Part shown: positions 18,264 through 46,119 of the stretch, in pieces
Numbering within the stretch: position 1 is the first letter of the stretch
How the letters are laid out: every line of letters starts with the position of its first letter
From: a virus
Direction: 5' to 3' (one strand)
Virus record (IMG/VR): IMGVR_UViG_3300025305_003938
Location: 16,439 to 80,438 of that record
Length of the DNA: 64,000 nucleotides
The notes under the pieces: generated by a model
Told to the model about the DNA's origin: nothing
Databases searched by the model: none
The model's input: the letters and a program-made list of their open reading frames with translations, nothing else
Made by a program: the position numbers and the translations under genes

Positions 18264-18293
18264 TCTATATAATATGAAACAATACAACGAAGG

Positions 18294-26673: not shown

Positions 26674-26674
26674 A

Positions 26675-28609: not shown

Positions 28610-28623
28610 ATAAAAAGTGATAT

Positions 28624-30947: not shown

Positions 30948-30948
30948 T

Positions 30949-31392
30949 ATGTTAAACACATTCAACGAACTTAAAAAGGAATTATCCCTAGATACCAGCA
31001 CGAACACCTTGACAGTGACAATTGGCGTACCAAAGAAGACCAGAAGAACCTCATTGATTGTCGTAAAGGGTAAAACCGTTAAGAATTGGGTAGAGAATTC
31101 TGGCTATGTTGTTGTCGATACAATTAAATCAAATCGTATCGACAATAGCGAAAGCGTAGCCGACAACACTTGGGTATATGAAGTGGAGAAATTGATTCAG
31201 GCCACCCAGCCGACAAAAATTGAAAAAGAAGACCCTCAGCCGGCCGCGAGACCAGAAAATCAAGAAAAAGAAGAAAAAGCTATTGACAATTCTGAAGCAG
31301 AGGCTATAATAGAGACTAAGACAGTGCAAAAGCGACCTAAAACTCGCAAAAAGGGAACTAAGACAGTTCGGAGCACTAGAAAAGAGGATTAG
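30949..31392 (+). CDS. Hypothetical protein with basic tail
   Basis: Start reassigned to ATG 30949 (AGGAG SD). Confidence 0.65.
   Translation: MLNTFNELKKELSLDTSTNTLTVTIGVPKKTRRTSLIVVKGKTVKNWVENSGYVVVDTIKSNRIDNSESVADNTWVYEVEKLIQATQPTKIEKEDPQPAARPENQEKEEKAIDNSEAEAIIETKTVQKRPKTRKKGTKTVRSTRKED
31283..31310 (+). promoter_or_regulatory. Consensus sigma70 promoter inside the upstream CDS, facing the nuclease/glycan operon
   Basis: TTGACA-N16-TATAAT. Confidence 0.65.
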
Positions 31393-32168
31393 TGTCTGCA
31401 AAAAAACATATATCTTTTAGCGAGCTAAAGGATTGGAAATTATGTCCGTTTTATCACAACTTAGCATGGATCAAGAAATTAAGCTCGTTTGAGGGCAATG
31501 AATACACCGCTTTTGGTACGGCTATCCACGACACCTGTGAGAAAAAGCTTCTAGAAAAGGGTTTTGACGAGAAGGAGCATTTTCTGACTTCTTTCAAGAA
31601 GACCCTGCAAATTCTAGAAAATAAGTCCGTAGTAATCGACACCTCTTTGATAGAAAAGATGGTTGAACAGGGCGTCGGTCTTCTTCCGGAAATCGAACCG
31701 GCCGTGAAGGAATATTTTCAAGAATTTGAAGTTGTTTCGACAGAAGAACAACTCTATGAACCCATTGAAGGTGCTGATGGCCTTTGTTTTAAGGGTTTTA
31801 TCGATGCCGTGATCAAGACGCCGGATGGAAAATATCATATTATAGATTGGAAGACTTGTTCCTGGGGCTGGGATGCCCGGAAACGCCAAGATCCGATGGT
31901 GACATATCAGCTAACTTTATATAAGAAGTTTTTCTGTGAAAAGCACAATCTTGATCCGAAAGATGTTGAAACCTACTTTGCTCTATTGAAGCGCACGGCT
32001 AAGAAAGACAAGGTTGAAGTTTTCAGAGTTACCTCAGGGCCAAGAAAAACTGAAAATGCTTTTAAACTTTTGATGAAGGCTGTTTATAATATAAAAAACA
32101 AGAAGGTCATCAAGAACCGTCTTTCTTGCACGCGGTGTGTGTTTAGGGGGACCGAACACTGCCCTTAA
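31392..32168 (+). CDS. PD-(D/E)XK nuclease, Cas4/RecB-like
   Basis: ISFS..CP, FGTAIH, GFID, IIDWKT, QLTLY, C-terminal CTRC.......CP. Confidence 0.85.
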   Translation: MSAKKHISFSELKDWKLCPFYHNLAWIKKLSSFEGNEYTAFGTAIHDTCEKKLLEKGFDEKEHFLTSFKKTLQILENKSVVIDTSLIEKMVEQGVGLLPEIEPAVKEYFQEFEVVSTEEQLYEPIEGADGLCFKGFIDAVIKTPDGKYHIIDWKTCSWGWDARKRQDPMVTYQLTLYKKFFCEKHNLDPKDVETYFALLKRTAKKDKVEVFRVTSGPRKTENAFKLLMKAVYNIKNKKVIKNRLSCTRCVFRGTEHCP

Positions 32169-32177
32169 AGGAATAAA

Positions 32178-33443
32178 ATGGCAAAAAAGATTAAAATTTT
32201 CACATTAAGCGACCATCCGCTTTCGCCCTCTGGTGTGGGCACACAGACAAAGTACATGATAGAGGCTATGCTTAGAACTGGAAATTACCAGTTCGTAAGC
32301 TTTGGCGGCGCAATCAAGCATCACGACTACAGGCCAGTTAAAACAGAAGAGTGGGGTGATGACTGGGTAATATACCCTGTTGATGGCTACGGAGATCAAG
32401 AGTCAGTAAGATCAGTAGTGTGGTCTGAAAAGCCAGATGTGCTGTGGTTTATGACAGATCCTCGCTTCTGGGACTGGCTATGGGCGATTGAAAATGAGAT
32501 CCGGGCCAATGTTCCTATGGTCTACTATCACGTTTGGGACAACTATCCTTACCCTAAATTCAACAAAGCTTTTTATGACTCCAACGATCATGTCGCATGC
32601 ATATCGAAGCTAACGTATGATGTTGTACAGAACGTATCACCAGACGTAGGTAGCTCCTATGTTCCTCACACGGTTGACACAGGCATATTCAAGAGGCTCG
32701 ATGAAGCGACAGTTGCGGAGTTTAAAGAAGAGCACTTCAAAAGCGCGAATAATCCAGATCGCTTAGTTTTCTTCTGGAACAATAGAAATGCAAGAAGAAA
32801 GCAGTCCGGCACTGTATTATGGTGGTTTAAAGATTTCTTAGACGTTGTTGGCCACAGTAACGCATGTTTGATAATGCACACCGAAACGGATGATGTACAT
32901 GGCCAGGATCTGGAAGCTATAGCTAGAGAATTAAACCTCACAGATGGCCAAGTTCGCTTTTCGAAACAAAAAGTCCCACCGGAGTACTTAGCGCTCGCCT
33001 ATAACATGGCCGATTGTACTATCAATCTCGCCGATGCTGAAGGCTTTGGTTTGGCAACTCTAGAGTCCTTAGCATGTGAGACTCCCATTATAGTCACAAT
33101 GACCGGCGGTATGCAGGAGCAAGTTACAGATGGTGAGAACTGGTTTGGCATAGGCCTGGAACCGGCCTCAAAGGCAATTATCGGATCGCAAGAGGTTCCG
33201 TACATCTATGAAGACAGGCTAGCCCGTAAAGACTTTTTAGATGCCATATTAAAGATTTATAACATGACTCCAGCCCAACGCCAAGAATTGGGCGCCAATG
33301 GTCGTAATCACATCATGACAAACTATTCGTTTGATCAATATAGCAAAAACTGGGATGAGCTTTTTATGAGCATTCATGAAGAGTGTGGTTCGTGGTCGAC
33401 AAGAAAAAATTATGAGTCTTGGACCTTCAAGGAGATAAAATGA
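32178..33443 (+). CDS. Glycosyltransferase family 4
   Basis: NRNARRK, EGFGLATLESLAC. Confidence 0.9.
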   Translation: MAKKIKIFTLSDHPLSPSGVGTQTKYMIEAMLRTGNYQFVSFGGAIKHHDYRPVKTEEWGDDWVIYPVDGYGDQESVRSVVWSEKPDVLWFMTDPRFWDWLWAIENEIRANVPMVYYHVWDNYPYPKFNKAFYDSNDHVACISKLTYDVVQNVSPDVGSSYVPHTVDTGIFKRLDEATVAEFKEEHFKSANNPDRLVFFWNNRNARRKQSGTVLWWFKDFLDVVGHSNACLIMHTETDDVHGQDLEAIARELNLTDGQVRFSKQKVPPEYLALAYNMADCTINLADAEGFGLATLESLACETPIIVTMTGGMQEQVTDGENWFGIGLEPASKAIIGSQEVPYIYEDRLARKDFLDAILKIYNMTPAQRQELGANGRNHIMTNYSFDQYSKNWDELFMSIHEECGSWSTRKNYESWTFKEIK

Positions 33444-35524
33444 GAAAGAAGATTTTAGTCAAGGGCCCCGCCCTCTCACGTTCAGGGTATGGAGAACAGA
33501 CAAGGTTCGCCCTCAGATCCCTCAGATCCCAGGAAGAGAAGTATGACATTTATTTACAGAATATCCCATGGGGTGCCACTGGGTGGATCTTTGAGGTCAA
33601 CGAAGAGCGCGAGTGGATCGATAGTACACTAGCTAAAACTGTCAAGCATACAGCCTCTGGTGGCAAGTTTGATATGTCCTTGCAGGTCACAATCCCAAAT
33701 GAGTGGGAAAAGTTAGCTCCGATAAACATCGGATATACGGCCGGCATTGAGACAAGCCAAATCTCTCCACATTGGATTGAAAAATCAGAAGTGGTTGATA
33801 AGATAATCACAATATCCAAGCACTCCCGGGACGTTTTCTTAAATACAGTCTATGATGTGCAGAACAAGGAAACCGGTGCTGTCGTTAAGGGCTACAGATG
33901 TGAAACACCCATCGAAGTAGTCCACTACCCAGTGAGAAGCGTTGAACCGGCCGCTTTGAGTTTGGATCTAGAAACAGATTTTAACTTCTTGATGATAGCT
34001 CAATGGGGAGTTAGAAAGAACCTAGAGAATACCTTACGATGGTTTGTTGAGGAATTTATTGATCGTGACGTTGGCTTAGTCCTCAAGACGAATCTAGCGA
34101 ACGATTCGGTTATGGATCGCGTACATGCAGAAGAGCGCCTAAAAAGTCTTCTAGATTCGTACAAAGACAGGAAGTGTAAAGTGTACATGATACACGGCAC
34201 AATGTCTGATAGTGAATTGGCCGGACTCTACACACATCCGAAAATTAAAGCTCTAATTTCTTTAACTCACGGTGAGGGCTACGGCCTTCCAATTTTTGAA
34301 GCCGCTTATAGTGGCCTACCGATTGTCACTGCTGGCTGGAGTGGCCATGTAGACTTCCTAAGTGCCCCAGTTAAAGATAAGAAGGGCAAAATGAAAGTCA
34401 AGCCACTTTACGCATCGGTCGATTACGAAGTCAAGCGAATTCAGAAAGAGGCTCGATGGGAAGGCGTCATCGAAAAGAAATCAGAGTGGTGTTACCCCCG
34501 CGAAGGCAGTGCAAAAATGCGCATGCGAGAGGTCTTTAAAAACCATAAACTAGCCCAAAGTCGCGCCAACAAATTGCAGAGTTGGATCATCGATAACTTT
34601 ACAGAAGAGTCGAAATATGAACAATTTGCGAATGCAGTTTGTAATGAAACGCTTAACTTAGATTGTGAATATGTTTTTGTCAGCGACAGGTTCGCTGATC
34701 AAGCGCCCGGCGGAGCAGAATTGAGCCTGCAGGCTGTAATCGACAGCACACCAGCCGATTATATTAAACTTAACGCAGCTGACGTTAGTTTGGGTTTGAT
34801 TGAAAAGTTGCAAGACAAAACTTGGATATTCTCTAACTTCACTTCTTTGGACAAGACTCTGATTCCTGTAGTAGCAAGAGACTTAAAGTATTACTTTATA
34901 GAATCAGATTACAAATACTGCGAACACAGACTACCACAACTTTGCCAGATCTTCAATGGCTGCGAAGATTGTGATTGCGTCGAAAAAGAGTCCGGACAAT
35001 TAATTAAATTGTTCTGTGATAACGCGCAGTTACTGTTCTTCCGTTCTGAGAAACAGCGCGAACATCATTTATCTGCCCTGGCTCTAAATAAGAAGAAGAC
35101 GAGAATAATGTCCGCTGTGTTCACATCGGAGATACTAGACTTACTGCAAGAAATGCGCACCACGTTTGCCGACAAGAAAGTGGATGTTTGGGTTATTAGC
35201 TCCTCCCCGTCGTGGGTCAAGGGTCATCAAGCTTCTAAGAAATGGTGTGAAGAAAATAAGAAGAACGTATTTGAATTGCATGGTCGATCATATAAAGAAT
35301 CCCTAGCTTGCTTAGCTCAGGCCCGCGGCCTCTGCGCATTGCCTCCGGGTTATGATACTTGTCCGCGGATGGTGATCGAAGCAAAATTATTAGGCTGTGA
35401 TCTGGAATTGAATGATAATGTTTTACATGCGAAAGAGCACTGGTTCGATACAGATGATTTGGAGGTTGTAGATACACACTTAAGATCTGTCATTCCATCC
35501 TTCTGGGAGGCAGTAACTGGTTAA
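33440..35524 (+). CDS. Two-domain glycosyltransferase (GT4 plus a second GT-B-like domain)
   Basis: SRSGYG, RKN, GEGYGLPIFEAA; second half GGAELS...DTCPRMVIEAKLLGC. Confidence 0.85.
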   Translation: MRKKILVKGPALSRSGYGEQTRFALRSLRSQEEKYDIYLQNIPWGATGWIFEVNEEREWIDSTLAKTVKHTASGGKFDMSLQVTIPNEWEKLAPINIGYTAGIETSQISPHWIEKSEVVDKIITISKHSRDVFLNTVYDVQNKETGAVVKGYRCETPIEVVHYPVRSVEPAALSLDLETDFNFLMIAQWGVRKNLENTLRWFVEEFIDRDVGLVLKTNLANDSVMDRVHAEERLKSLLDSYKDRKCKVYMIHGTMSDSELAGLYTHPKIKALISLTHGEGYGLPIFEAAYSGLPIVTAGWSGHVDFLSAPVKDKKGKMKVKPLYASVDYEVKRIQKEARWEGVIEKKSEWCYPREGSAKMRMREVFKNHKLAQSRANKLQSWIIDNFTEESKYEQFANAVCNETLNLDCEYVFVSDRFADQAPGGAELSLQAVIDSTPADYIKLNAADVSLGLIEKLQDKTWIFSNFTSLDKTLIPVVARDLKYYFIESDYKYCEHRLPQLCQIFNGCEDCDCVEKESGQLIKLFCDNAQLLFFRSEKQREHHLSALALNKKKTRIMSAVFTSEILDLLQEMRTTFADKKVDVWVISSSPSWVKGHQASKKWCEENKKNVFELHGRSYKESLACLAQARGLCALPPGYDTCPRMVIEAKLLGCDLELNDNVLHAKEHWFDTDDLEVVDTHLRSVIPSFWEAVTG

Positions 35525-35525
35525 A

Positions 35526-36278
35526 ATGTCAGATACTCATTTTAAAATTGTTACTTCGATGTACAACGTTGAAGATTGGATTAAAAGAACAGCGTCGAGC
35601 ATAAAAAATCAGAACTACACAAATTTTCAATGTGTCTTCATTGATGATGCGTCCACTGACAGAACTGTGGAGATCTTAGAAAGCCTCGTAGGCGATGATG
35701 AGCGGTTTGCTGTTCTTAAGAATTCAGATAAGAAATATTCGCTAGGCAGGATCAACCAGGGTATCGAGCATGCTTCTCCTGCCGATGAAGATATTATTCT
35801 GAGTGTCGACGGAGATGATTGGCTAGCCACAAAAAACGTATTAACTTATCTGGATGAGTTTTATAAGAAGGAACAATGTTGGATGACATACGGAAGCTAT
35901 ATGGAATACCCAACAGGTATGAAGGGTATCGAAGCTTCGGCATATTCTCCGGAAGTCGTCCAAAATAACACATATAGAACAGATCGATGGCGTGCCTCCC
36001 ATTTAAGAACATTCAAATACAAACTTTGGAAGAACATCGAAAAAGAAGACCTTCTAGACTGGAATGGCAATTTCTTCAAAACGACTATCGATAAAGCTTT
36101 CATGTACCCTATGCTGGAGATGGCCGGCCCCCGTGCCAAATATATAGACGAAACGCTCTACGTGTACAATCTGACAAATCCGCTTAACGTGCATAAATCC
36201 CGTCGAGAGTTACAATTAAAAACAAACGATTACCTGAGAGGCAAAGAAGCATATGACCGCAAAGACATATTGCATTAA
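35526..36278 (+). CDS. Glycosyltransferase family 2
   Basis: YNVEDWI, IDDASTD, VDGDDWL. Confidence 0.9.
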   Translation: MSDTHFKIVTSMYNVEDWIKRTASSIKNQNYTNFQCVFIDDASTDRTVEILESLVGDDERFAVLKNSDKKYSLGRINQGIEHASPADEDIILSVDGDDWLATKNVLTYLDEFYKKEQCWMTYGSYMEYPTGMKGIEASAYSPEVVQNNTYRTDRWRASHLRTFKYKLWKNIEKEDLLDWNGNFFKTTIDKAFMYPMLEMAGPRAKYIDETLYVYNLTNPLNVHKSRRELQLKTNDYLRGKEAYDRKDILH

Positions 36279-36873
36279 AGAAGAATACATCCACAGAGAT
36301 GAATATATCCAGAATGTACAAATAGGCTCTGGAGACAAGTTCCAAGATCGAGTGTACGCAAAAGCCCACGAGGTTTGCGAGCGTAATAATTGTATGACTG
36401 TACTGGATATTGGATGCGGATCTGCCTATAAGCTGATAAAATATTTTGGTGATAAAATTTTTTTAGGATTAGAACTTGAACCGAATCTGAGTTGGCTTAA
36501 AGAAACTTACCCTCATTACCACTTCCGACGTTCTGATTTTGACAACCCTCCCGGTGGCCACTTTGACTTGGTAATCTGCTCTGATGTTATCGAGCACTTA
36601 ATAGATCCAGATCAGCTGCTAGAATTTGTACAAAAGCTAAGCTTTGGCACATTCGTTGTTTCAACTCCGGAGCGAGACAATATGCAGATTTTACAAAAGG
36701 GTCACACTTGGGATGGCCCACCACACAATGTCTATCACGTTAGAGAATGGACGGCACCAGAGTTCAAGCAATACATTTCTCAAACATTCAATGTCGAAGA
36801 ACAGATATTAACGAAAGGTGAAGAAGTTAGTACAGTTGACGAGTGTCAAATCGTCGTTGCAACTAGAAAATGA
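36253..36873 (+). CDS. Class I SAM-dependent methyltransferase
   Basis: VLDIGCGS, FDLVICSDVIEHL, STP, HVREW. Confidence 0.9.
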   Translation: MTAKTYCIKEEYIHRDEYIQNVQIGSGDKFQDRVYAKAHEVCERNNCMTVLDIGCGSAYKLIKYFGDKIFLGLELEPNLSWLKETYPHYHFRRSDFDNPPGGHFDLVICSDVIEHLIDPDQLLEFVQKLSFGTFVVSTPERDNMQILQKGHTWDGPPHNVYHVREWTAPEFKQYISQTFNVEEQILTKGEEVSTVDECQIVVATRK

Positions 36874-37778
36874 AAGTTCTTCTAGACAATGTGAATTTAA
36901 ATTCCACTAGTGGTCCGAATCACTTTGGATCAAAACTAAATAAATACATAAGTCGCCTGGGGTCGGAACTAGTATCACACCCTTCAGCTGCAGCTCCTGA
37001 CATTCAATTGTCTTTTATAGAATCCTTCATCGATACGAATTTACCATTAGTTCAGCGCCTCGATGGAATCTACTTCGATATTGATAAAGATAACAAGTTG
37101 CTAAACTCAAACATACTCAGGACATATGAGAGATCATCAGGAGTGATATTCCAATCCGAATATTGCAGAGATCTCTGTTTTAGATATTTGGGAGAACACG
37201 ACAATCATGCCGTCATTCATAACGGCGCCGATTATGAGCTAATAAGAGAGATTACTCCCATGGAGGTCCCTATGCTTAACAAATTCGAAACAGTGTGGTC
37301 TTGCGCCGGCCGCTGGCGACCATGGAAGCGCCTCCGACAAAACATAGAATATTTCATTAACTTTTCTGGACCCAACGACTGCTTGATTGTCGCTGGAGAT
37401 GGTGGCGCCAGTGAGATGATAAAACACGATAGAGTATTTTATGTTGGTAGACTTCCGGTTGATATCTTATTTTCTTTATATAAGAGATCTAAGCACTTTA
37501 TACATTTGGCAAGATATGACGCTTGTCCAAACGTTGTAGTCGATGCCCGCGCCAGCGGCTGTCAGATCATATGCTCTTCTTTAGCAGGAACAAAAGAAGT
37601 CGCTGGCCCAGACGCTACCATTGTCGAAGATATCCCATGGGATTTGGAGCCGGTAAGCACAACGAGAATTCCAGATATTAAGTTCGATAACATAACAAAG
37701 AACACATACGATACGAACATCGACATGTCCTTTGTTGCAAAAAAATACTTAAACTTTCTAGAAAAAACTTTACAATAG
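36870..37778 (+). CDS. Glycosyltransferase family 4
   Basis: SGPNHF, QRLDG, IHNG, DACPNVVVDARASG. Confidence 0.85.
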   Translation: MKVLLDNVNLNSTSGPNHFGSKLNKYISRLGSELVSHPSAAAPDIQLSFIESFIDTNLPLVQRLDGIYFDIDKDNKLLNSNILRTYERSSGVIFQSEYCRDLCFRYLGEHDNHAVIHNGADYELIREITPMEVPMLNKFETVWSCAGRWRPWKRLRQNIEYFINFSGPNDCLIVAGDGGASEMIKHDRVFYVGRLPVDILFSLYKRSKHFIHLARYDACPNVVVDARASGCQIICSSLAGTKEVAGPDATIVEDIPWDLEPVSTTRIPDIKFDNITKNTYDTNIDMSFVAKKYLNFLEKTLQ

Positions 37779-37785
37779 GATTATT

Positions 37786-38634
37786 ATGTTAGTACAAAAA
37801 CAAGTTGATAAATTTATGATGAACCTGAACGTTGAGGATGGAGGCATCTCCAGAGTGCTCTATCACATCGGAGAACGCGAGCTAGCGTTTATGTCTCTTT
37901 TGCGAGAGACAGTGCAGGAGGGCATGACATGTGTAGATCTGGGTAGTAATATCGGGTACACAACTCTTTTTATGCTCGACAAGGTTGGGCCCCGCGGCCG
38001 CGTTTATGCAATTGAGCCCGACCCAAACAACCTAGGTCTCCTTCGAAGTAATGTTAGCCAGAACCACTTCCTAGAAAACTGTGAGATCACTCAATGTGCA
38101 ATTTCAGATACAGATGGTCAGTTAGACTTTTGGCAGGCCAGCGCTCCGAACCTGAGCAGTATCACCAAACACAAAAATAGCACTCACAAAATCACCGTTG
38201 ATTCTTACTGTCTTAACACTTTCTTGTCTGAGCGTTCCTATCCAAACTTTATAAAAATGGACGTTGAAGGAGGCGAAGTCAAGATTTTTGAAGGTGGGCT
38301 GGAATACTTTACGAAAAATAGAGGCACCACACACTTCTTGGTCGAGGTGCATCCAGCAACCTACAATGAAGACAACGACTTCGAAGCAGTGCTCAAAGAG
38401 TACTTCAAGATAGGATTCAACCCCAAATATGTTGTAACCACACCGGTGCCACAGCCGGCCTTATTTGCTGATGCTGGTTACACTCCGTCCCGCACTGTTG
38501 AAACCGATGGTTTTCATCGAGGCGTCTACGATGATATTTCACAAGAACATCTACTAGAATTTTCTTGTAGAGAACATCCCGAGGGCCGCAGCAAGAAAAT
38601 CGTAAGAAGCTTCATGCTTTCCAGAGAAGAGTAA
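37786..38634 (+). CDS. FkbM family methyltransferase
   Basis: VDLGSNIGY, AIEPDP, FIKMDVEGGE, VEVH. Confidence 0.9.
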   Translation: MLVQKQVDKFMMNLNVEDGGISRVLYHIGERELAFMSLLRETVQEGMTCVDLGSNIGYTTLFMLDKVGPRGRVYAIEPDPNNLGLLRSNVSQNHFLENCEITQCAISDTDGQLDFWQASAPNLSSITKHKNSTHKITVDSYCLNTFLSERSYPNFIKMDVEGGEVKIFEGGLEYFTKNRGTTHFLVEVHPATYNEDNDFEAVLKEYFKIGFNPKYVVTTPVPQPALFADAGYTPSRTVETDGFHRGVYDDISQEHLLEFSCREHPEGRSKKIVRSFMLSREE

Positions 38635-38642
38635 AACATTAA

Positions 38643-39335
38643 ATGTACTTTGACAAAGGATTGAATGACTTTGGGATAGTTCTAAAGGGGGCTAGTGTTG
38701 CAAGGATTCATAAGATAGTCGACAATTATCAAGACTGCTATATGGTTAATAATTTTGACCGTAATGCGAATAATGAAGAGTCTGAGTGGAGTTTAGTAGC
38801 TCCATTACTTCATGGAAAGAACATTGTTCATTTTGTCAATCGACTTGAAACGGCCCCCCTTCTAAGAGAACATTATGAAGAATTGAATATCCAACATATC
38901 CAGTTCACGAAAACAGAGCTGGACGCCCGCCTCCGCGACATGAAAAACCTTTATGAAAGCTATGACCTAACTTGCCATATGCTTCCAGAGGAACTGTTAG
39001 AATATAATAGCTTCTTTACGGACAAATATTATATGCGCCCGGGCGATTCCAATTACGCTGTGAAGCACCCGAACACAGGTGTTTTATCGATCATTTATGC
39101 TGCTCATGTTTTGAAACCCAAGAACTTGTGGATTGCTGGTTTGGACTTTTATCAAAACGATTACCTGTTCAGAAGGCCGTGGATTGCGCCCCTAAAGAAT
39201 CAACAGTTGAAAATGAAAAACACTCAGATGGTAGAGCACTTTGTCGAGATCATCAAAAAGCATCCGGATATTAATTTTAAGATGATAACTAATGCGAAAT
39301 TACCAAGTTTAGATAACTTGGAGATCATAGAGTGA
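38643..39335 (+). CDS. Sialyltransferase-like protein (GT29/GT42-type fold)
   Basis: PNTGVLSIIYAA...LWIAGLDFY resembles the TG..A......I.I.G.DFY motif; adjacent to neu genes. Confidence 0.6.
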   Translation: MYFDKGLNDFGIVLKGASVARIHKIVDNYQDCYMVNNFDRNANNEESEWSLVAPLLHGKNIVHFVNRLETAPLLREHYEELNIQHIQFTKTELDARLRDMKNLYESYDLTCHMLPEELLEYNSFFTDKYYMRPGDSNYAVKHPNTGVLSIIYAAHVLKPKNLWIAGLDFYQNDYLFRRPWIAPLKNQQLKMKNTQMVEHFVEIIKKHPDINFKMITNAKLPSLDNLEIIE

Positions 39336-40138
39336 CAGAGTATAAAGATCTTTTTGGGCCCGCCGAGTTACGTCTTTTTCTAGAGAAGATCAAACCCGAT
39401 GAAAAATATAATGATTATCTTAGAGGCAAGCGCGTCGCCATAGTGGGCCCATCGAAACATATGCTGGCATATGACGCCGGCAGTGTTATTGATGAATATG
39501 ATGTTGTTATTAGAATGAAGTGGGTTGATATCCTACCACTCTCAGAACACTGCAATGGCAAATATGTAAAACACATCGGCAGTAAGACTGATGTTGTATA
39601 CGGTAATAGGTTTCTTATTGTTAACAACATGATGCAGGAATATCTAGAGTATTTTAAAAGATCTGAAATAGATCACTATAGAATCCCCGATAATAAGGTT
39701 TCGAACCACTTTTTCTCCAAGGAACTAGCATGCGGCACGACGTATACAGAATACGCATGCGGAGATTTTGGACTTCAGTATCAATCTATCACACAAACAG
39801 ATGGTACAAGATATTGGCCGCAAACAGGAACGGTGGCCATCATGGAAGCAATTGCTAGCGATGCTGCAGAGATTTTCGTTAGTGGCATAACCATGTATCA
39901 TGGCGGTGGCCACATCTTCCAGAAGAATAAGAACCCCACACACAATCAGCCTATTGTGGGAAAACATCACGGCGTGTTAGAAACAGCAATGTTAATAGAT
40001 TGCTATGAATTATCAGAAAATCGTGGTAAAATAAGATTTGATGAGCCCCTGTATAACATTATGAACATGTACAAACAGGGTTTAGCCACGAAGGAAATTA
40101 CAAAAACAATAAATGAGTTTGTAAATAAACTGGAATGA
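39332..40138 (+). CDS. GT29-like sialyltransferase
   Basis: Sialylmotif L-like RVAIVGPS...G..IDEYDVVIR...GSKTD, S-like PQTGTVAI...IFVSGITMY, VS-like HHGVLE. Confidence 0.75.
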   Translation: MTEYKDLFGPAELRLFLEKIKPDEKYNDYLRGKRVAIVGPSKHMLAYDAGSVIDEYDVVIRMKWVDILPLSEHCNGKYVKHIGSKTDVVYGNRFLIVNNMMQEYLEYFKRSEIDHYRIPDNKVSNHFFSKELACGTTYTEYACGDFGLQYQSITQTDGTRYWPQTGTVAIMEAIASDAAEIFVSGITMYHGGGHIFQKNKNPTHNQPIVGKHHGVLETAMLIDCYELSENRGKIRFDEPLYNIMNMYKQGLATKEITKTINEFVNKLE

Positions 40139-40812
40139 TAACAGACAAGAAAATTTTAGCAGTCACTCTCGCCCGCGGCGGCTCAAAGAAGATTCCGAGA
40201 AAAAACATAATCGACATCAATGGTAAGCCGCTGCTAGCCTACACAACAGAGATCGTCAAGGAGAGTCAGTATGTGGATAAACATATTGTATCGACGGATG
40301 ATTTGGAAATTGCAATGATCGTAGAAGAATGTGGAGCCGAGTTGCATATGAGGCCCCCCCTTTTGGCACAAGATGATACTACCTCTGCAGCTGCGTTGAT
40401 GGATGTTGTGCAAAGCAACCCCAACTATGACTATGTGGTGGAAGTCATGGCCACAAATCCATTAAAAACGACAGAAGACCTTGACAAAGCACTAGAGAAG
40501 CTTTATGATACTGGAGCTGACTCTGTTGTATCGGTAGTGAGAATATGGGATCACCACCCCTCTAGAGTCAAATATATCAAAGAAGACAAGTTAATGGATT
40601 TTTACCCAGAGATACCCGAATCCCGCCGGCAAGATTTAACACCGGCAGCATATGTCAGAAACGGAAGTATATATGCAACGACTGTGGAGTCTTTCCTAGA
40701 ACATGAGGTTCGCCTAGGCCCAGATACAAGGCCCTATATTATGTCAGAAGAGAACACGATTAATATCGATGAACCTAGAGATTTAGAGTTAGCAAGAATA
40801 ATACTTAAATGA
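40135..40812 (+). CDS. neuA: Acylneuraminate cytidylyltransferase (CMP-nonulosonate synthetase)
   Basis: ARGGSKKIPRKN...GKPL, VSTDD, RRQDL...Y.RNGSIY, INIDEPRD. Confidence 0.9.
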   Translation: MITDKKILAVTLARGGSKKIPRKNIIDINGKPLLAYTTEIVKESQYVDKHIVSTDDLEIAMIVEECGAELHMRPPLLAQDDTTSAAALMDVVQSNPNYDYVVEVMATNPLKTTEDLDKALEKLYDTGADSVVSVVRIWDHHPSRVKYIKEDKLMDFYPEIPESRRQDLTPAAYVRNGSIYATTVESFLEHEVRLGPDTRPYIMSEENTINIDEPRDLELARIILK

Positions 40813-41741
40813 AAATTATATGTATAACACCAGTGACTGATACCATGATGCAGAACCTTGAGACGAAAGGTGATGTCACATACTGTCCAAATATTAACAA
40901 AAATCAGCTGTCAGAGGCTCTTAAGGAAGACTACGACGTTATATTCACCAACCCTAACAAACAGGGTTTCGTGCTTGATAAGGGCCTCCTGGGGCCCTCT
41001 AGCGTGTCTGTAATCTGTACAGCCTCGACGGGTACTAACCATATTGACAAAAAATACTGCCAAGACAACAATATTACTATATTTTCTATAACGACGGATT
41101 ATCCACTTTTGAGGAAAATCACATCAACAGCAGAGCACTCTTTTGCTCTAATGATGGCCTTGTTGAGAAATCTACCTAATTCACAGAATTCTGTTATTGC
41201 CGGGGCATGGAACTGGGAACCGTTTTTAGGTCGCCAAATCAACTGTTTGAAAATTGGTATTGTTGGCTATGGCCGCCTAGGCGAGATGATGGCGCGCTAT
41301 TGTGCCGCTTTCGGAGCAGAGGTTTATATCTGTGATCCATATAAAAGTACAGACATGAAATACCCCCAGGTTGATTCTTTAGAGCGACTGTTCGAAATTT
41401 GCGATGTGGTTTCTCTCCATGTGCATGTCACAGATGAAACAAAATATTTTATTAATAAAAAATTGCTTGCAAAAGTAACCAAATCAGTGTATCTTATCAA
41501 TACGTCTCGTGGTGAGGTTGTTGATGAGAAGGACATCATTTCCATGTTAGAATCAGGTAAGTTAGCTGGATATGCGACAGATGTCGTTGAGGATGAATTT
41601 GGAGACGTATCGAACAGTCCAATAATCCAACACTTAGAAGATTTAAATATTATTGTTACTCCTCACATTGGGGGTATGACAAGTGATGCTAGGGAACTAG
41701 CTTATAATGGAGCAATTAACAAATTGGAGAATACAAAATGA
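40809..41741 (+). CDS. D-isomer-specific 2-hydroxyacid dehydrogenase
   Basis: TGTNHID, STAEH, GIVGYGRLG, LINTSRG, TPHIGG. Confidence 0.9.
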   Translation: MKIICITPVTDTMMQNLETKGDVTYCPNINKNQLSEALKEDYDVIFTNPNKQGFVLDKGLLGPSSVSVICTASTGTNHIDKKYCQDNNITIFSITTDYPLLRKITSTAEHSFALMMALLRNLPNSQNSVIAGAWNWEPFLGRQINCLKIGIVGYGRLGEMMARYCAAFGAEVYICDPYKSTDMKYPQVDSLERLFEICDVVSLHVHVTDETKYFINKKLLAKVTKSVYLINTSRGEVVDEKDIISMLESGKLAGYATDVVEDEFGDVSNSPIIQHLEDLNIIVTPHIGGMTSDARELAYNGAINKLENTK

Positions 41742-42541
41742 CAGAAATTATTGCTGAAATCGGTTGGAATCATATGGGAGACATCGAGTTGGCTGATCGT
41801 ATGATCGGTGCTGCAGCCCGAAGTGGCGCCACTTATGCTAAATTTCAAACTTGGTCTGTTTCTAGGTTGAAAGACGGAGAGTGGGACAGGGACGGCCGCC
41901 GCCAAATCTACGAAAATGCAGAATTAACCGCAGCTGATCATATAGACTTGATGAACCTGTGTGACAAGCATAGCATTAAATTTCTATCATCAGTGTTTAG
42001 TGTTCCAGATGCTCAACTGCTAGCAGACTTGGGCCAGTCATCGGTTGTTAAGATTCCGAGTTTTGAATGCAGAAATGTAGAATTAATTGATTTCTGTAAT
42101 GAGCACTTTAAGAAGGTTTATATGTCAACAGGCACATCCAAGTGGTCAGAATTACAGGAAATCGTACCAAGGTTCGATAAAGCTGAACTCACCCTTCTTC
42201 ACTGTGTCTCTTCTTATCCATGCTTGCCAACCATGGCAAACATTTCAAAGCTAGCTGACTTAAAAACTCTTTGCCCTCGTATCGGCTATAGCGACCATAT
42301 CATGGGAGTGGAGTCCGCGAAAGTGGCGTTAGCCTATGGTCTAGACGTTGTTGAGAAGCATTTTACGGTAGACCATGACCTTCCGGGCCGCGACAACAAG
42401 TTTGCAGTACTACCAGAGGAACTTAAGAGCCTATCGGAATTTATCACACTTGTCAAAGAGATGCATCAGTTTCACGGGCTAGACTATCAGGCCGCAGAGG
42501 AAGGTGCCCGCAATGAATACGCGGGAAGATTTAATGGCTGA
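41738..42541 (+). CDS. neuB: N-acetylneuraminate synthase family protein lacking the C-terminal SAF/AFL domain
   Basis: IIAEIGWNHMGD, AKFQT, KIPS, LHCVSSYP, GYSDH, EKHFT. 267 aa. Confidence 0.9.
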   Translation: MTEIIAEIGWNHMGDIELADRMIGAAARSGATYAKFQTWSVSRLKDGEWDRDGRRQIYENAELTAADHIDLMNLCDKHSIKFLSSVFSVPDAQLLADLGQSSVVKIPSFECRNVELIDFCNEHFKKVYMSTGTSKWSELQEIVPRFDKAELTLLHCVSSYPCLPTMANISKLADLKTLCPRIGYSDHIMGVESAKVALAYGLDVVEKHFTVDHDLPGRDNKFAVLPEELKSLSEFITLVKEMHQFHGLDYQAAEEGARNEYAGRFNG

Positions 42542-43178
42542 TAATATCTCTATTATTATTCGAAACAGGAACGAGGAGAGGTGGATAGGTTATGCTATTC
42601 AGTCTTCTCTAGACACATTTGAAAATCCGGAGATTATTGTCATTAATAACAATTCAGTGGATCAGTCAATGGAGATCGTGAACGAGTTCTGTTTTTCTAA
42701 TATTAAGATTTCAAACATTGACAATTATACCCCTGGTCGCGCCTTGAACACTGCAGTGAGGGAGGCATCAAACGAAACAATTTTGATCCTATCAGCTCAC
42801 AGTGTTATAACGAAGCCAGTCGATTTGGAAAAAGTCCAAAGACAGCTTCAGGAACATGTTGCTGTATTCGGAAAACAAACACCAGTATATCGCGGCCGCA
42901 AGATCACAAAGCGTTACGTTTGGTCACACTTTACAGACGAATCTGTGGTTAATATGTGGTCTGAGCCCGAGAGCAGACACTTCCTTCACAATGCTTTCTG
43001 CTTTTATAACAAAGGGGCATTGCTGGAAAATAAATTCGATGAACGGCTTTCTGGTAAAGAGGATCGTTACTGGGCTAATAAGGTTGTATCACGCGGCCTG
43101 ACGTACCTATATGATGTAGAGTTACAATGTGACCACCATTGGACCCCAGCCGGCAACACTTGGAAAGGTTTGGGCTAA
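42534..43178 (+). CDS. Glycosyltransferase family 2
   Basis: ISIIIRNRNEE, NNNSVD, LSAH, EDRYWA. Confidence 0.85.
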   Translation: MADNISIIIRNRNEERWIGYAIQSSLDTFENPEIIVINNNSVDQSMEIVNEFCFSNIKISNIDNYTPGRALNTAVREASNETILILSAHSVITKPVDLEKVQRQLQEHVAVFGKQTPVYRGRKITKRYVWSHFTDESVVNMWSEPESRHFLHNAFCFYNKGALLENKFDERLSGKEDRYWANKVVSRGLTYLYDVELQCDHHWTPAGNTWKGLG

Positions 43179-43741
43179 TGAGAATTGTTGCGTTTATACC
43201 AGCCAAGGGGAATTCGAACAGACTTAAGGGGAAAAACATGTTTCCTCTGAAAGATAAACCTCTAATTTGTTGGACTTTCGACGCGATCAAAGAATCAAAA
43301 TACTTAGATGAGGTATATATTTCGACAGATAGTGAAGAAATCTCTAACATTTCCTTACTTTACGGCTTTAACGTCATAGAAAGGCCTCCGGAGCTTACGC
43401 TACGACATGTTGGAAAACAAGAGGTTTTAGAACATGCGATTGTTGAAATAGAAGATGTGGAAAAAGTAGATTATATTTGTATGCTACAGGCAAATTCCCC
43501 TCAGATTGAGGCTTCTAAGATAGACGAAGCTGTCGAGAAAGTTGTAAATTCGGCCGGCGAGGTGTGGGAGTGCTTATCGATAAACAAAGAAACCTTGTTT
43601 ACTGATGGTGCTATAAGGGTTTTTCACCGAGATTGCTTAACTCGCAAAGGCCTAGGCATGTATATAAGTACTGTTTTGACCGATTACGTTGACGTACATA
43701 CGATTGAAGATATAAGAAATATAGAGGCTACAGGCGCTTAG
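43178..43741 (+). CDS. Second NeuA-like cytidylyltransferase
   Basis: IPAKGNSNRLKGKN, ISTDS, LQANSP, VDVHTIED. Confidence 0.85.
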   Translation: MRIVAFIPAKGNSNRLKGKNMFPLKDKPLICWTFDAIKESKYLDEVYISTDSEEISNISLLYGFNVIERPPELTLRHVGKQEVLEHAIVEIEDVEKVDYICMLQANSPQIEASKIDEAVEKVVNSAGEVWECLSINKETLFTDGAIRVFHRDCLTRKGLGMYISTVLTDYVDVHTIEDIRNIEATGA

Positions 43742-44401
43742 ATGTATAAAGTTACTGTTGGTATATGCTGTTTTAATCAAGACGATTGGGTGTATCGTTG
43801 TTTGAGGAGTCTATCATCTCAAAGTATGCACAAAGACGATTTTGAAGTTGTTATTGTAGACGATAACCACAAACCCAGCCAAACGCTAGAGGATGTATGC
43901 GCCGCAATGTCTAACGTATTGAACATACGACTGGTAAGGAACGAAACGAACATTGGCCTGCCCGCCTCATTGAATAGGATTCTAAAAACGGCCCGCGGCA
44001 AATACTTTGTTAGAGTAGACTCTGATGATTATGTGTCCAGGCATTTCCTCTATATGTTATCGACGTTTTTAGAGATGAATGAGAACTATCAAGCCGTTTA
44101 TTGCGATTATATGAAAGTCAACCATGTTGGCCAGAAGTTGGGGTATTATGATGCACATACTGCCCCTATAGCGTGCGGTGTCATGTTTACATATGAATCA
44201 CTTTGTTCATTAAATTTTTATAACGAAGAGTATAAAATGAGAGAAGGGCATGAATTGTTGGAGAGATTCCAGCAGAATTATTCAATGTACCACCTAGAAG
44301 CACCACTGTATCGGTACAGGATACATGAAGAGAATAGAACAAACAACAAAAAGCAAGTAGAATACTACGATTTAAAGCTTAAAGGAGAAGAAAATGGCTA
44401 G
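43742..44401 (+). CDS. Glycosyltransferase family 2
   Basis: VVIVDD, NIGLPASLN, VRVDSDD, LYRYRIH. Confidence 0.9.
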   Translation: MYKVTVGICCFNQDDWVYRCLRSLSSQSMHKDDFEVVIVDDNHKPSQTLEDVCAAMSNVLNIRLVRNETNIGLPASLNRILKTARGKYFVRVDSDDYVSRHFLYMLSTFLEMNENYQAVYCDYMKVNHVGQKLGYYDAHTAPIACGVMFTYESLCSLNFYNEEYKMREGHELLERFQQNYSMYHLEAPLYRYRIHEENRTNNKKQVEYYDLKLKGEENG

Positions 44402-45269
44402 ATGTTTAGTAACAGGGCATAAAGGGTATATTGGTACCAAGCTCGTTGAGGAATTAGAACGACAGGGGCATGAGGTCGTAGGGATCGATCTGCAAGATGG
44501 AAAAGATGTAATATTAGAATTGCAAGAACATACAGATGGAGGGTTTCACCCCCACTACGTAAATTTTAAACCAGAATATCTGTTCCACTTAGCTTGTATC
44601 CCTCGCGTCGCCTACAGTGTAGAGCAACCTGTTGAAACAATGCAGAACAACGTTCTAGCCACTAGCGTTGCCCTTAATTTTGCGCGCAAGAACGGGGTAA
44701 AGCGGTTTGTATATTCAAGCTCCTCTTCGGTACGTGGCAATGGGAATGGTCCTGTTAGTCCATATGCTCTTCAGAAGTACACATCTGAGTTAGAAGTGGG
44801 AATGTACAGCGCCCTTTATGGCACGATGGACACTGTGTCTCTTCGTTACTTCAATGTTTATTCACACGATCAACAGGCCTCTGGCCCATACGCTACTGCC
44901 GTCGCAGCATATATGAGAGCCGTGAGAGAGGGTACCACCCCTCACATCACTGGAGATGGAGAGCAGCGCCGCGATATGTCTCACGTACTGGATATTGTTT
45001 CTGCAAACATATTCGCCATGGAACACACTAAGGATTTTTCTGGCCAACACTTTGACGTTGGAACTGGAAGTAATATATCTCTTAACCAGATAAAAAATAT
45101 TGTACAAAAACACCACCCTAGTGTAGAATTTGAATATGTTGAAGACCGCGCCGGCGATGTACGCAATACAAAAGCAAATATGGTGCCACTAATGGAATTG
45201 GGATGGACGCCTAGCTGGAATATTAACGATGGCATTGAGGACTGTTTTGAGCGAACGAGAGTAGGGTAG
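44394..45269 (+). CDS. NAD-dependent nucleotide-sugar epimerase/dehydratase
   Basis: VTGHKGYIG, SSSS, SPYALQK, LRYFNVY, GDGEQRRD. Confidence 0.9.
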   Translation: MARCLVTGHKGYIGTKLVEELERQGHEVVGIDLQDGKDVILELQEHTDGGFHPHYVNFKPEYLFHLACIPRVAYSVEQPVETMQNNVLATSVALNFARKNGVKRFVYSSSSSVRGNGNGPVSPYALQKYTSELEVGMYSALYGTMDTVSLRYFNVYSHDQQASGPYATAVAAYMRAVREGTTPHITGDGEQRRDMSHVLDIVSANIFAMEHTKDFSGQHFDVGTGSNISLNQIKNIVQKHHPSVEFEYVEDRAGDVRNTKANMVPLMELGWTPSWNINDGIEDCFERTRVG

Positions 45270-45270
45270 T

Positions 45271-46119
45271 ATGAAAGAGAAGATCGGTATTATAGGAAAT
45301 GGATTTGTAGGCTCTGCAATTGCGTCCGGCTTCGCGCTGCATGCAGATGTGAAGGTCTATGATGTAGATACAACTAGGTCGACCCACAGCATGGGGCATG
45401 TCATAAATGAATCTAATGTTATTTTTGTTTCGGTACCGACTCCAATGCTTCACACCCTAGGCGGAAAGATTGATACAACAATCATGGATGGGGTTTTCGA
45501 ACAAATTTCCATGTTGAATAATCGAAAAGACAATATCTTTGTGGTGAAATCTACAATTGTACCCGGAACAATCGAGAGGTACATAGAAAGATATCCCAAG
45601 CTCAACATCGTGTTTAGTCCCGAGTTCTTAACCGAACGTGCTGCGCGCTTTGATTTTATTAATGCATCTAGGATTATTTTAGGTGGAGAATCCAAGCTAA
45701 CTGAGCAAGTGGAAAACACTCTAAGAGTAAGGTTCCCCCATGTTAGAATCATCCACACAGATGTAGCTACGGCTCAATTTATCAAGTATATGGCAAATTG
45801 CTTTTTCGCAACAAAAGTTTCATTCATGAATGAGATGAAACAAGGAGCAGACAAATTGGGCGTTAATTGGGATGATGCCATATTAGGCTTCATCACAGAC
45901 GGCCGTATCGGGAATTCGCATATCGATGTCCCAGGTCACGATGGTAGCCTAGGTTTTGGAGGCAAATGCTTTCCAAAAGACTTGAATGCATTTATTGAAC
46001 TGTTCCACGAGAATGGTATTGATCCGGCAGTTATGGAATCAGTTTGGAAGAAGAATTTAGAAGTAAGAAAAAACTTAGATTGGGCCGAGATTGTCGGCGC
46101 AGTAACTAACAAAAACTAA
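45271..46119 (+). CDS. UDP-glucose/GDP-mannose dehydrogenase family protein (short form)
   Basis: GIIGNGFVG, VPTP, KSTIVPGT, PEFL, GFGGKCFPKD. Confidence 0.9.
   Translation: MKEKIGIIGNGFVGSAIASGFALHADVKVYDVDTTRSTHSMGHVINESNVIFVSVPTPMLHTLGGKIDTTIMDGVFEQISMLNNRKDNIFVVKSTIVPGTIERYIERYPKLNIVFSPEFLTERAARFDFINASRIILGGESKLTEQVENTLRVRFPHVRIIHTDVATAQFIKYMANCFFATKVSFMNEMKQGADKLGVNWDDAILGFITDGRIGNSHIDVPGHDGSLGFGGKCFPKDLNAFIELFHENGIDPAVMESVWKKNLEVRKNLDWAEIVGAVTNKN

Follow-up and report, generated by a model that had tools for sequence, protein, structure and literature searches.

A putative sixteen-gene glycan-assembly island with sialyltransferase-fold enzymes in a large uncultured marine myophage

To what does a tailed phage attach a glycan when it carries a long array of sugar-handling enzymes and none of the usual machinery for exporting their product? 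The question is raised by a 64,000-nucleotide stretch of viral DNA (the window, within which all coordinates are given), taken from one viral contig of 80,438 bp (its bases 16439-80438), which is catalogued as an IMG/VR virus record (IMGVR_UViG_3300025305_003938). Between positions 32178 and 46119, 16 plus-strand open reading frames (ORFs) covering about 14 kb form an island of glycosyltransferase (GT), methyltransferase, and sugar-synthesis genes. The answer that we prefer, with roughly even confidence, is that this island is a self-contained cytoplasmic glycan-assembly line, expected to produce an acidic and methylated chain with sialic-acid-like sugars, whose acceptor is a phage-encoded, surface-exposed virion protein. 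A virion protein is favoured because (i) all of the enzymes are soluble, (ii) a near-complete relative has no carrier, flippase, or polymerase, (iii) a pair of GT4 genes has been kept by phages that infect different phyla, and (iv) mycobacteriophages provide a precedent.

The island, its phage, and its relatives

Gene content, folds, solubility, the absence of export genes, and the conservation and variability of the locus were established directly. When every ORF of at least 60 aa on the 80-kb contig was scanned for hydropathy, none of the 16 island proteins contained a hydrophobic segment and no coding-strand ORF of the contig contained more than two. A hidden Markov model (HMM) search for the flippase Wzx (PF01943) was negative in the contig and in four related ones, of which one is 95% complete; Wzy, WecA, WbaP, and an ABC permease (Wzm), families for which the hydropathy scan and not HMMs was used, were likewise not found. 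In the 172-kb, 95%-complete relative, only two ORFs have as many as 4-5 hydrophobic segments, and both are without a Pfam match. An earlier note on this DNA, which reported no flippase, polymerase, exporter, or initiating transferase in the window, therefore holds for the whole contig and for the 95%-complete relative, and the search for wzx and neuC that it proposed beyond the window found neither gene in the contig or in the relatives searched. Three genomes recur below: the contig itself (G000), a 56%-complete near relative (G001), and the syntenic 172-kb relative (G002), which carries the variant locus L005.

That the DNA belongs to a phage is agreed upon by its tRNAs, transfer-messenger RNA (tmRNA), PhoH and baseplate wedge genes, and IMG/VR record. 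The contig is that of a large, uncultured marine myophage (tailed phage): almost all of its genes share one strand, and they include those for PhoH, a gp6-like baseplate wedge protein, a late-sigma-like protein, and a PrkA/YeaH/SpoVR trio. Nine tRNAs were found by ARAGORN and a tenth (22289-22352) by Rfam only. A terminal repeat is absent, and CheckV estimates completeness at 43%. When the island and the block upstream of it were compared by megablast with 50,697 phage records, nothing matched, which leaves the phage without a close cultured relative among them. By the wedge protein and the first GT4, each about 30% identical to that of the contig, the cultured phages that come nearest are Microcystis phage Mel-JY01 and Flavobacterium phage immuto. 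The tmRNA is of the one-piece type (RF00023, 105.6 bits; 8792-9109) and encodes the tag peptide ANNADYDLALTA. As to the host, this form of the tmRNA and the sigma-70 consensus promoters argue only against Bacteroidota.

The features of the locus are as follows, with the promoter and the nuclease gene that precede the island listed first.

31283..31310, plus strand: perfect sigma-70 consensus promoter (TTGACA-N16-TATAAT), inside the ORF at 30919-31392, with the nuclease gene starting some 80 nt further on
31392..32168, plus strand: PD-(D/E)XK-type exonuclease (phrog_69/1218), a conserved left anchor outside the glycan machinery, which also precedes the GT4 pair in Mel-JY01 and immuto
32178..33443, plus strand: GT4 glycosyltransferase, 421 aa (PF00534, 50.9 bits; phrog_2170, E 8e-25)
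33419..35524, plus strand: 701-aa protein with a GT4-like N-terminal half (Pfam 22 bits, below cut-off; phrog_2170, E 6e-10)
35526..36278, plus strand: GT2 glycosyltransferase, 250 aa (PF00535, 73.7 bits)
36253..36873, plus strand: class I S-adenosylmethionine-dependent methyltransferase (Methyltransf_23), 206 aa (PF13489, 45 bits)
36870..37778, plus strand: GT4 glycosyltransferase, 302 aa (PF13692, 31 bits; PF00534, 29.5 bits)
37786..38634, plus strand: FkbM-family methyltransferase, 282 aa (PF05050, 73.4 bits; TIGR01444, 92.7 bits), probably a sugar O-methyltransferase
38643..39335, plus strand: transferase of an unannotated family with a sialyltransferase fold in its predicted structure, 230 aa, nearer to GT42/Maf than to GT29
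39332..40138, plus strand: soluble GT29-like transferase, 268 aa (PF00777, 24.5 bits)
40135..40812, plus strand: CMP-ulosonic acid synthetase, 225 aa (PF02348, CTP_transf_3, 92 bits)
40809..41741, plus strand: D-isomer-specific 2-hydroxyacid dehydrogenase, 310 aa (PF02826, 161.6 bits)
41738..42541, plus strand: NeuB-family phosphoenolpyruvate (PEP)-aldose condensing synthase without a SAF domain, 267 aa (PF03102, 171 bits)
42504..43178, plus strand: GT2 glycosyltransferase, 224 aa (PF00535, 63.8 bits), in this island variant only and absent from G002
43139..43741, plus strand: second, shorter cytidylyltransferase, 200 aa (PF02348, 76.6 bits), in this island variant only
43742..44401, plus strand: GT2 glycosyltransferase, 219 aa (PF00535, 75.9 bits)
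44394..45269, plus strand: short-chain dehydrogenase/reductase (SDR) nucleoside diphosphate (NDP)-sugar epimerase/dehydratase, 291 aa (PF01370, 143.5 bits; GalE and TviC best in NCBIfam, both below cut-off)
45271..46119, plus strand: NDP-sugar 6-dehydrogenase (Ugd-like) without the C-terminal domain, 282 aa (PF03721 and PF00984 only)

The tight coupling of 16 genes described in the earlier note was borne out, in that all are co-directional and neighbours either share 4-40 nt or are separated by 0-8 nt; apart from the corrected details given below, its list of families was reproduced by Pfam, NCBIfam, and PHROGs. The GC content of the island (0.41-0.44) is that of the rest of the window. All equivalog-level NCBIfam scores fell below their cut-offs, and by this measure the island enzymes are divergent members of their families.

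The first GT4 (32178) is the most conserved gene of the island, with 57-78% identity across island variants. Its counterparts in cultured phages of Microcystis, Flavobacterium, and Rhodothermus are 29-34% identical to it, those of Mel-JY01 and immuto being orthologues that align along more than 95% of the protein, and it is our candidate for the first, acceptor-specific transferase. The 701-aa protein encoded next to it had been described as a two-domain GT4. Its N-terminal half is indeed GT4-like, the L005 orthologue reaching 31.7 bits; its C-terminal ~320 aa, in contrast, have no match in Pfam and no sequence match in the PDB, and only unnamed viral clusters match them in the ESM Atlas. As this C-terminal part lacks an assignment (18 of its residues matched the 302-aa GT4, marginally), the two-domain description is only half shown.

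The slot occupied by the island, between the PD-(D/E)XK nuclease gene and genes for Zn-ribbon and sigma-like proteins, is filled in related viruses. Two contigs (L002 and L003) hold the same 16 genes there with 77-89% aa identity, and two others (L004 and L005) hold a 15-gene variant in which island and flanks are 29-70% identical; this variant gains a sulfotransferase-like gene and is without the second GT2 and the second cytidylyltransferase. Further variants (L007, L008, L010, and L039) carry GT29-like, NeuA-like, and mostly NeuB-like genes. In Mel-JY01 (PP395634) and immuto (MW353176), the nuclease, GT4, and GT4-like genes are followed by GT2, methyltransferase, and aminotransferase genes. 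Because the head is conserved and the tail varies across these relatives, the comparison points to a glycosylation locus that is old and shared by the lineage, its head constant and its tail open to exchange, a logic like that of bacterial O-antigen loci. The sulfotransferase-like gene of G002 (L005:8365-9315; PF13469, 27.5 bits, cut-off 27) lies between the GT42-like and NeuB genes, suggesting that the glycan of that lineage is sulfated.

Across IMG/VR, we found 45 loci with relatives, giant-virus metagenome-assembled genomes among them; four contigs of the latter (L006, L011, L012, and L033) have GT29-like relatives. By tblastn, the GT29-like protein had no match in the phage genome collection and NeuB matched only 3 of its records, one of them a bacterial contig.

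Sialyltransferase-fold proteins and the sugar branch

Two adjacent genes, 38643 and 39332, had been proposed to encode sialyltransferase-like proteins of family GT29. For 39332 this assignment stood. The protein scores above the PF00777 cut-off (24.5 bits against 23) over profile positions 48-125, which cover sialylmotif L, as do its L005 orthologue (25.9 bits) and a Mucilaginibacter relative (49.6 bits) in score; a profile of nine homologues matched ST3Gal1 (E 7.8e-5), and its 8 best PDB matches were all GT29. The AlphaFold2 model (predicted local distance difference test [pLDDT] 78.5; predicted template modelling score [pTM] 0.83) likewise had GT29 enzymes as all of its top 29 informative Foldseek matches (best E 1e-6). 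In VIA-align it matched ST6Gal1 with Z 13.2 (root-mean-square deviation 3.4 over 204 residues), followed by ST3Gal1 and ST8Sia3 (both 11.1) and ST6GalNAc2 (10.6), with GT42 at 8.7. Invariant in the nine homologues are an L-like block (K-x4-V-G-P ... D-x2-D-x3-R), a second block (W162-x3-G166 ... G185-x-T-x-Y-H-G-G-G-H194), and H212-x4-E217, whose order and spacing would fit sialylmotifs L, S, III, and VS, the HMM alignments spanning motif L only. The cysteines of the L-S disulfide are not among the invariant columns (the motif L position reads VGPS), and the hydropathy scan shows no hydrophobic segment that could be a type II membrane anchor or stem. Since both conserved cysteine and anchor are lacking, we file the protein as GT29-like, in a prokaryotic/viral branch, and not as a canonical Golgi sialyltransferase. 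Its predicted activity, transfer of an ulosonic acid from a CMP donor, is based on genomic association: cytidylyltransferase and NeuB genes flank it, and the same adjacency is seen in phage and bacterial loci.

The 38643 protein, in contrast, is not GT29. It has no match in Pfam, NCBIfam, or PHROGs, a 22-sequence profile of its family has no significant sequence match in the PDB, and among 60 distant relatives only two showed a weak match (E 0.008) to the MptE-like/Maf Pfam model. Its AlphaFold2 model (pLDDT 86) is nevertheless that of a sialyltransferase (GT-A variant 2) fold, as judged by VIA-align scores of Z 11.8 against Cst-I (GT42; 189 residues aligned), 10.4 against Maf, and 9.6-8.4 against four GT29 structures (ST3Gal1, 9.6), placing the family nearer to GT42/Maf. 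Paralogy of 38643 and 39332 was not significant by pairwise BLAST, and the two are linked by profile-profile comparison only: hhalign of a 60-member 38643 profile with the GT29-like family gave a probability of 81% (E 1.2e-5) through the L-like and S-like regions. The family has 296 cluster representatives among 1.84 billion proteins. Two distant members are fused to class I methyltransferase domains, and these fusions would tie the transferase family functionally to sugar methylation.

GT29-like proteins are not confined to viruses. Bacterial and archaeal sequences only, many of them marine, have been reported (Petit et al. 2018, PMC5811610), and the word "phage" does not occur in the text of that paper. 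We found relatives at 19-35% identity in 20 bacterial genomes, among them Ignavibacteria, Bacteroidota, Myxococcota, and Verrucomicrobia-type genomes. A triad of GT29-like, CTP_transf_3, and 2-hydroxyacid dehydrogenase genes is adjacent in Myxococcota, Clostridia, and Mucilaginibacter, as it is in G002 (bacterial loci examined: L070:7890-14299 [Mucilaginibacter], L067, L062, and L072); on a Prochlorococcus single-cell contig (L072), only the dehydrogenase was detected beside the GT29-like gene. The recurrence of the triad indicates that the 2-hydroxyacid dehydrogenase is a genuine partner of such a CMP-sugar pathway, and it points to a step of ulosonic-acid metabolism that has not been described. 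In Mucilaginibacter, the triad follows Wza and Wzc genes and is followed by GFO/IDH/MocA, SIS, SDR, dehydroquinate synthase (DHQS)-like, and YhcH genes, which looks like an undescribed CMP-sugar-acid pathway without NeuB. Because GT29-like genes occur in bacterial Wza/Wzc capsule loci, the enzyme type alone does not indicate a cytoplasmic acceptor.

Which sugar these transferases might use depends on the synthesis genes. The TIM barrel of the NeuB-family protein (41738) covers PF03102 positions 1-235 of 241, and its best solved relative is 6ncs, a 290-aa chain that is also without SAF (E 7e-35). When the protein is aligned with 6ncs and SpsE, the segments IIAE.G.NH, HCVSSYP, and YSDH, which we take to be metal-binding, coincide. 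The SAF (antifreeze-like) domain is absent, the protein ending at model position 259 of 329, and NCBIfam scores are well below the cut-offs (180 bits against 399.65 for NeuB_NnaB; 146 against 340.25 for PseI). For the first cytidylyltransferase (40135), a full-length match to PseF (TIGR03584) scores 146 bits, also below the equivalog cut-off; the second (43139), 28% identical to it, matches within its N-terminal ~125 residues only.

The earlier note had read these genes as a NeuB and NeuA nonulosonate pathway. A NeuB-family synthase and two CMP-transferases do stand beside the transferases, and this part was upheld; the nonulosonic product was not, the precursor genes and SAF being absent. A NeuC-type 2-epimerase (PF02350) and a DegT-type aminotransferase (PF01041) were not found by HMM in G000, G001, or G002, all three of which gave the positive control, NeuB; KdsA was likewise absent by HMM from the same three genomes, and there is no acetyltransferase among the 16 island proteins. 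Without NeuC, aminotransferase, and KdsA, the phage makes none of the amino-sugar precursors of N-acetylneuraminic, pseudaminic, or legionaminic acid (Neu5Ac, Pse, and Leg) and no Kdo-8-P by way of KdsA. Given that NeuC, aminotransferase, acetyltransferase, and SAF are all missing, the product could be a Kdn-like or other 2-keto-3-deoxy acid, which suggests either (i) a deaminated acid of Kdn type, made from a common hexose, or (ii) use of a precursor made by the host. The presence of two cytidylyltransferases and two sialyltransferase-fold enzymes would allow for two different CMP-acids, one possibly host-derived.

The Ugd-like dehydrogenase (45271) retains the catalytic-cysteine motif GFGGKCFPKD and is without the C-terminal UDP-binding domain. 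The same truncation occurs in the 47%-identical protein of L005/G002 (L005:13934-14803), which indicates that it is not decay. The small ORFs 3' of 46119 were considered as the missing domain and rejected, since they encode a Zn-ribbon protein and an unrelated protein. Together with the SDR protein, the dehydrogenase suggests a uronic acid branch, which the absent nucleotide-sugar-binding domain makes uncertain.

The acceptor

We infer a sequence of steps in which sugar identity, order, and acceptor are all conditional. The Ugd-like dehydrogenase and the SDR epimerase would turn UDP-sugars of the host into donors of uronic-acid type, and the SAF-less NeuB would join PEP to a host-supplied aldose, yielding a sialic-acid-like, possibly Kdn-like, 2-keto-3-deoxy acid from which one or both cytidylyltransferases would form the CMP-sugar. 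Three GT4, three GT2, and two sialyltransferase-fold enzymes might then add sugars singly, straight onto the acceptor and without a lipid carrier, the conserved GT4 pair initiating the chain and the variable distal genes giving each lineage its glycan type; the two methyltransferases would cap or modify the chain. The occurrence of a syntenic GT4 pair in phages whose hosts belong to different phyla and have different envelopes makes a phage-encoded acceptor the easier explanation.

Candidates for such an acceptor were sought by a tripeptide scan of 64 ORFs of at least 150 aa against composition-matched shuffles. The tripeptide [ST][GAS]S is 4-5x over-represented in only three proteins of uncharacterised function (59123-60754, 60754-63999, and 19823-21052), with z of 7.6 and 6.8 in the two that directly follow the gp6-like wedge gene and 4.8 in 19823; a fourth outlier is the SDR epimerase (4 occurrences, 0.6 expected). 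The G002 orthologues of the three (119884-121485, 110522-119875, and 98403-99617; 42-50% identity) have z of 7.2-7.9. These proteins could be the acceptors and the tripeptide a glycosylation sequon. A broader form of the proposal, which we put forward tentatively and would not expect to hold in full, is that protein O-glycosylation independent of a lipid carrier occupies a fixed slot throughout a clade of large marine and freshwater myophages: the GT4 pair would start on Ser/Thr of distal baseplate or fibre proteins at [ST][GAS]S, and swappable cassettes would finish the chain, here with CMP-activated sialic-acid-like sugars, transferred by the soluble GT29-like and GT42-like enzymes, and methylation, and in the relative with sulfation. 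If so, the slot would be a phage "serotype locus" comparable to bacterial O-antigen loci, and the soluble, disulfide-free GT29 enzymes would be prokaryotic and viral counterparts of the animal sialyltransferases that act on proteins.

Several points weigh against a virion protein as acceptor. The capsid genes lie outside the 43%-complete contig. The Mucilaginibacter relative of the GT29-like gene resides in a Wza/Wzc capsule locus, that is, one for lipid-linked glycans, and the phage could borrow the carrier, flippase, and ligase of its host. The enrichment of [ST][GAS]S may be a structural repeat of fibres. The absence of the nucleotide-sugar-binding domain from the Ugd-like protein and of SAF from NeuB means that substrates may differ from the classical ones. 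Finally, the conserved sigma-70 promoter before the nuclease-island unit suggests early or middle rather than late expression, and the T4-type late promoter motif is not enriched.

The expression evidence behind this last point is as follows. Perfect or one-off sigma-70 consensus sequences stand at the same relative place in relatives (L002:1931; L007:1180, for L007/L008; L039:1803; L005:377), with diverged spacers; additional perfect copies were seen within variant islands (L004:940, L005:6763, L007:7722, and L039:15732), and near-consensus promoters occupy intergenic regions in the left part of the window. Scans of the island for terminators and promoters gave totals no better than those of shuffles, and the single 12/12 promoter was retained as it is conserved in relatives. 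The T4-type late promoter TATAAATA occurs twice where 4 occurrences are expected; with no enrichment, late expression was rejected as a line of evidence. From these motifs, host sigma-70 RNA polymerase would read the island, starting early or in mid-infection. A separate motif, CTATATA, occurs at 18265, 22507, and 24099, 11-29 nt upstream of the starts at 18294, 22518, and 24125, and may be a phage-specific promoter; the 18265 copy follows a strong GC hairpin, and the 24099 copy heads a 22-kb array that ends with the island.

The early expression implied by the conserved promoter would also suit another acceptor, and remodelling of the host envelope is an alternative that we regard as possible, if doubtful. 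The phage enzymes would then extend or cap lipid-linked intermediates of host O-antigen, capsule, or lipooligosaccharide, for export by the host's flippase and ligase, thereby changing the surface of the infected cell so that, for instance, other phages are excluded or progeny no longer re-adsorb to debris. A Wzx and Wzy of the phage's own would be dispensable if those of the host are used; bacterial GT29-like genes with the same partners are found in polysaccharide loci, one directly after Wza/Wzc; and the GT42 enzymes, the closest fold to 38643, act on lipooligosaccharide. This explanation is opposed by the failure to find an initiating transferase, flippase, polymerase, or ligase even in the 95%-complete relative and by the complete lack of membrane segments in the eight transferases. 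Further, the same GT4 pair is present in phages that infect Cyanobacteria, Bacteroidota, and Rhodothermus, hosts with differing lipid-linked intermediates, and an investment of 16 genes would be unusual for an apparently lytic phage.

It is unlikely that the glycan is destined for some other acceptor, be it a host protein (flagellin, pilin, or S-layer, as for Maf), a non-virion phage protein, or a small molecule. The resemblance of the 38643 model to the core of the Maf flagellin glycosyltransferase, and the weak MptE-like/Maf Pfam matches of two of its relatives, would fit such a role. The 230-aa 38643 protein is, however, without an extra acceptor-binding domain like that of Maf (whose chain has 632 aa), the contig points to no particular host protein, and a host-specific one is hard to reconcile with a locus that is conserved in phages with unrelated hosts.

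DNA hypermodification, in which a modified base in the phage's DNA would carry an oligosaccharide as a block to restriction, is very improbable. The eight transferases, CMP-ulosonic acids, and methylation exceed any DNA glycan known to us. The island does directly follow a nuclease gene, two of its GT4s give sub-threshold matches to the "GT4-conflict" model, and phage GTs that put diverse glycans on 5-hydroxymethylcytosine DNA have been described (10.1101/2023.12.21.572611, PMC13326640). Yet the thymidylate-synthase-like hydroxymethylase PF00303 is absent by HMM from G000-G002, as is Tet/JBP PF12851, the latter a weak negative since control genomes also gave no match. The DNA of immuto, which carries the syntenic GT locus, was found by liquid chromatography with UV detection and mass spectrometry to contain canonical dA, dC, and dT with fdPreQ1 in place of dG, and the portion of that report consulted mentions no glycosylated nucleoside (10.1101/2023.04.13.536721). 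With neither a hydroxymethylase-type enzyme nor a glycosylated base in this account of immuto, DNA, which the earlier note had allowed as an acceptor, does not appear to be one.

That bacterial DNA was mis-assembled onto the contig, or is a decaying, functionless acquisition, is scarcely credible: NeuB, Ugd, and the second cytidylyltransferase are shorter than their classical homologues and all scores are below the NCBIfam equivalog cut-offs, but the truncations are conserved across variants, the same slot is filled in four other independent viral contigs (L002-L005), all frames are intact and closely packed, and GC content matches the phage.

Elsewhere in the window, the SpoVR-like, YeaH-like, and PrkA (serine kinase) genes, followed by PhoH (24125-29964), are packed closely leading into the island; homologues of PrkA occur in Thermus phages and megaphages at ~30-34% identity. 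Nearer to the island, a 222-aa protein (30279-30947), which related viruses have conserved in the same place ahead of the nuclease, shows a weak zinc-metallopeptidase signature (ATLF, 26.2 bits, cut-off 27.4; Peptidase_M90, 21.9 bits). In a region with early-type promoters, genes for a DUF2827 protein (216 bits) and a class I/II aminotransferase have 4 nt in common (10301-12630). A SpoU-family RNA methylase (12999-13523) and, among the tRNA genes, a DDAH/amidinotransferase-like protein (PF19420, 74.8 bits; 22518-23306) are also encoded.

Comparison with known systems

The full-text literature searches returned no paper on phage GT29 or on glycosylation with nonulosonic acids by phages, and PHROGs has no family for either sialyltransferase-fold protein or for this NeuB. 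The module is recurrent in uncultured viruses and, as far as the literature was searched, undescribed. We know of no earlier tailed-phage system that makes and attaches sialic-acid-like sugars. If the virion is glycosylated, this would be the first of its kind, and virus-encoded glycosylation, known from giant viruses and from mycobacteriophages, would then reach to marine phages that are abundant; a sialic-acid-like coat could have effects on the specificity of adsorption, the stability of the particle, its loss to grazers, and whether host defences recognise it. The small, soluble, Cys-free GT29-like enzymes and the new sialyltransferase-fold family are also of interest for enzymology, glyco-engineering, and the origin of eukaryotic sialyltransferases.

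The closest cultured counterparts are the loci of immuto and Mel-JY01, which share with the island the order of nuclease, GT4, second GT4-like, GT2, methyltransferase, and sugar-tailoring genes, together with a wedge protein at 30-33% identity. Unlike the island, they have no NeuB, cytidylyltransferase, or sialyltransferase-fold gene, and immuto has WecE-type aminotransferases. No paper studying the GT locus of either phage was found in our literature search; with the same locus and other distal sugars in cultured phages, the question of the acceptor can be put to the test at the bench.

The bacterial systems resemble the sugar branch. The prokaryotic GT29-like homologues (PMC5811610) are, like the 39332 protein, small proteins consisting of a GT29 module with sialylmotifs; our literature search found none that has been characterised biochemically. 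The GT29-like gene of Mucilaginibacter lies in a Wza/Wzc export locus, whereas the phage island has no export genes. The lipooligosaccharide locus of Campylobacter jejuni (neuB1, neuC1, neuA1, and the GT42 enzymes Cst-I/II), or Maf systems, likewise bring together a NeuB-type enzyme, a CMP-synthetase, and a GT-A variant 2 transferase. The phage differs from these in having neither NeuC nor the precursor enzymes of Pse and Leg, and its 38643 protein has no match to the Pfam models for GT42 and Maf. In the Kdn pathway of Bacteroides thetaiotaomicron and microalgae, a NeuB-family Kdn-9-P synthase, a phosphatase, and a CMP-Kdn synthetase convert a common hexose into a nonulosonic acid, and neither NeuC nor an amination step is needed. 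That the phage has no NeuC or DegT gene fits this pathway, while no haloacid dehalogenase (HAD) phosphatase is visible in the island and its 2-hydroxyacid dehydrogenase has no role in Kdn synthesis.

Viral precedents resemble the proposed assembly on virion proteins. Among giant viruses, the chloroviruses, the Mimiviridae with their fibril glycans, and Cafeteria roenbergensis virus with its Kdo pathway glycosylate virion surface proteins by clade-specific, multi-gene, host-independent systems; these are viruses of eukaryotes, unlike the phage studied here, and we know of no characterised GT29-type ulosonic-acid transferase among them. Nearer at hand, a 2023 study by Freeman et al. (Cell Host Microbe 31:1216, cited in PMC11256854) is said to have found that GTs and O-methyltransferases of mycobacteriophages (Che8/Corndog type) glycosylate virion proteins. 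Like the island, that system has soluble phage GTs and methyltransferases, active in the cytoplasm of the infected cell, and no lipid carrier or flippase; it differs in comprising 2-4 genes instead of 16, in its actinobacterial hosts, and in lacking both a CMP-ulosonic branch and GT29/GT42-fold enzymes. The island described here would combine virus-encoded glycosylation with CMP-ulosonic acid pathways of bacterial type.

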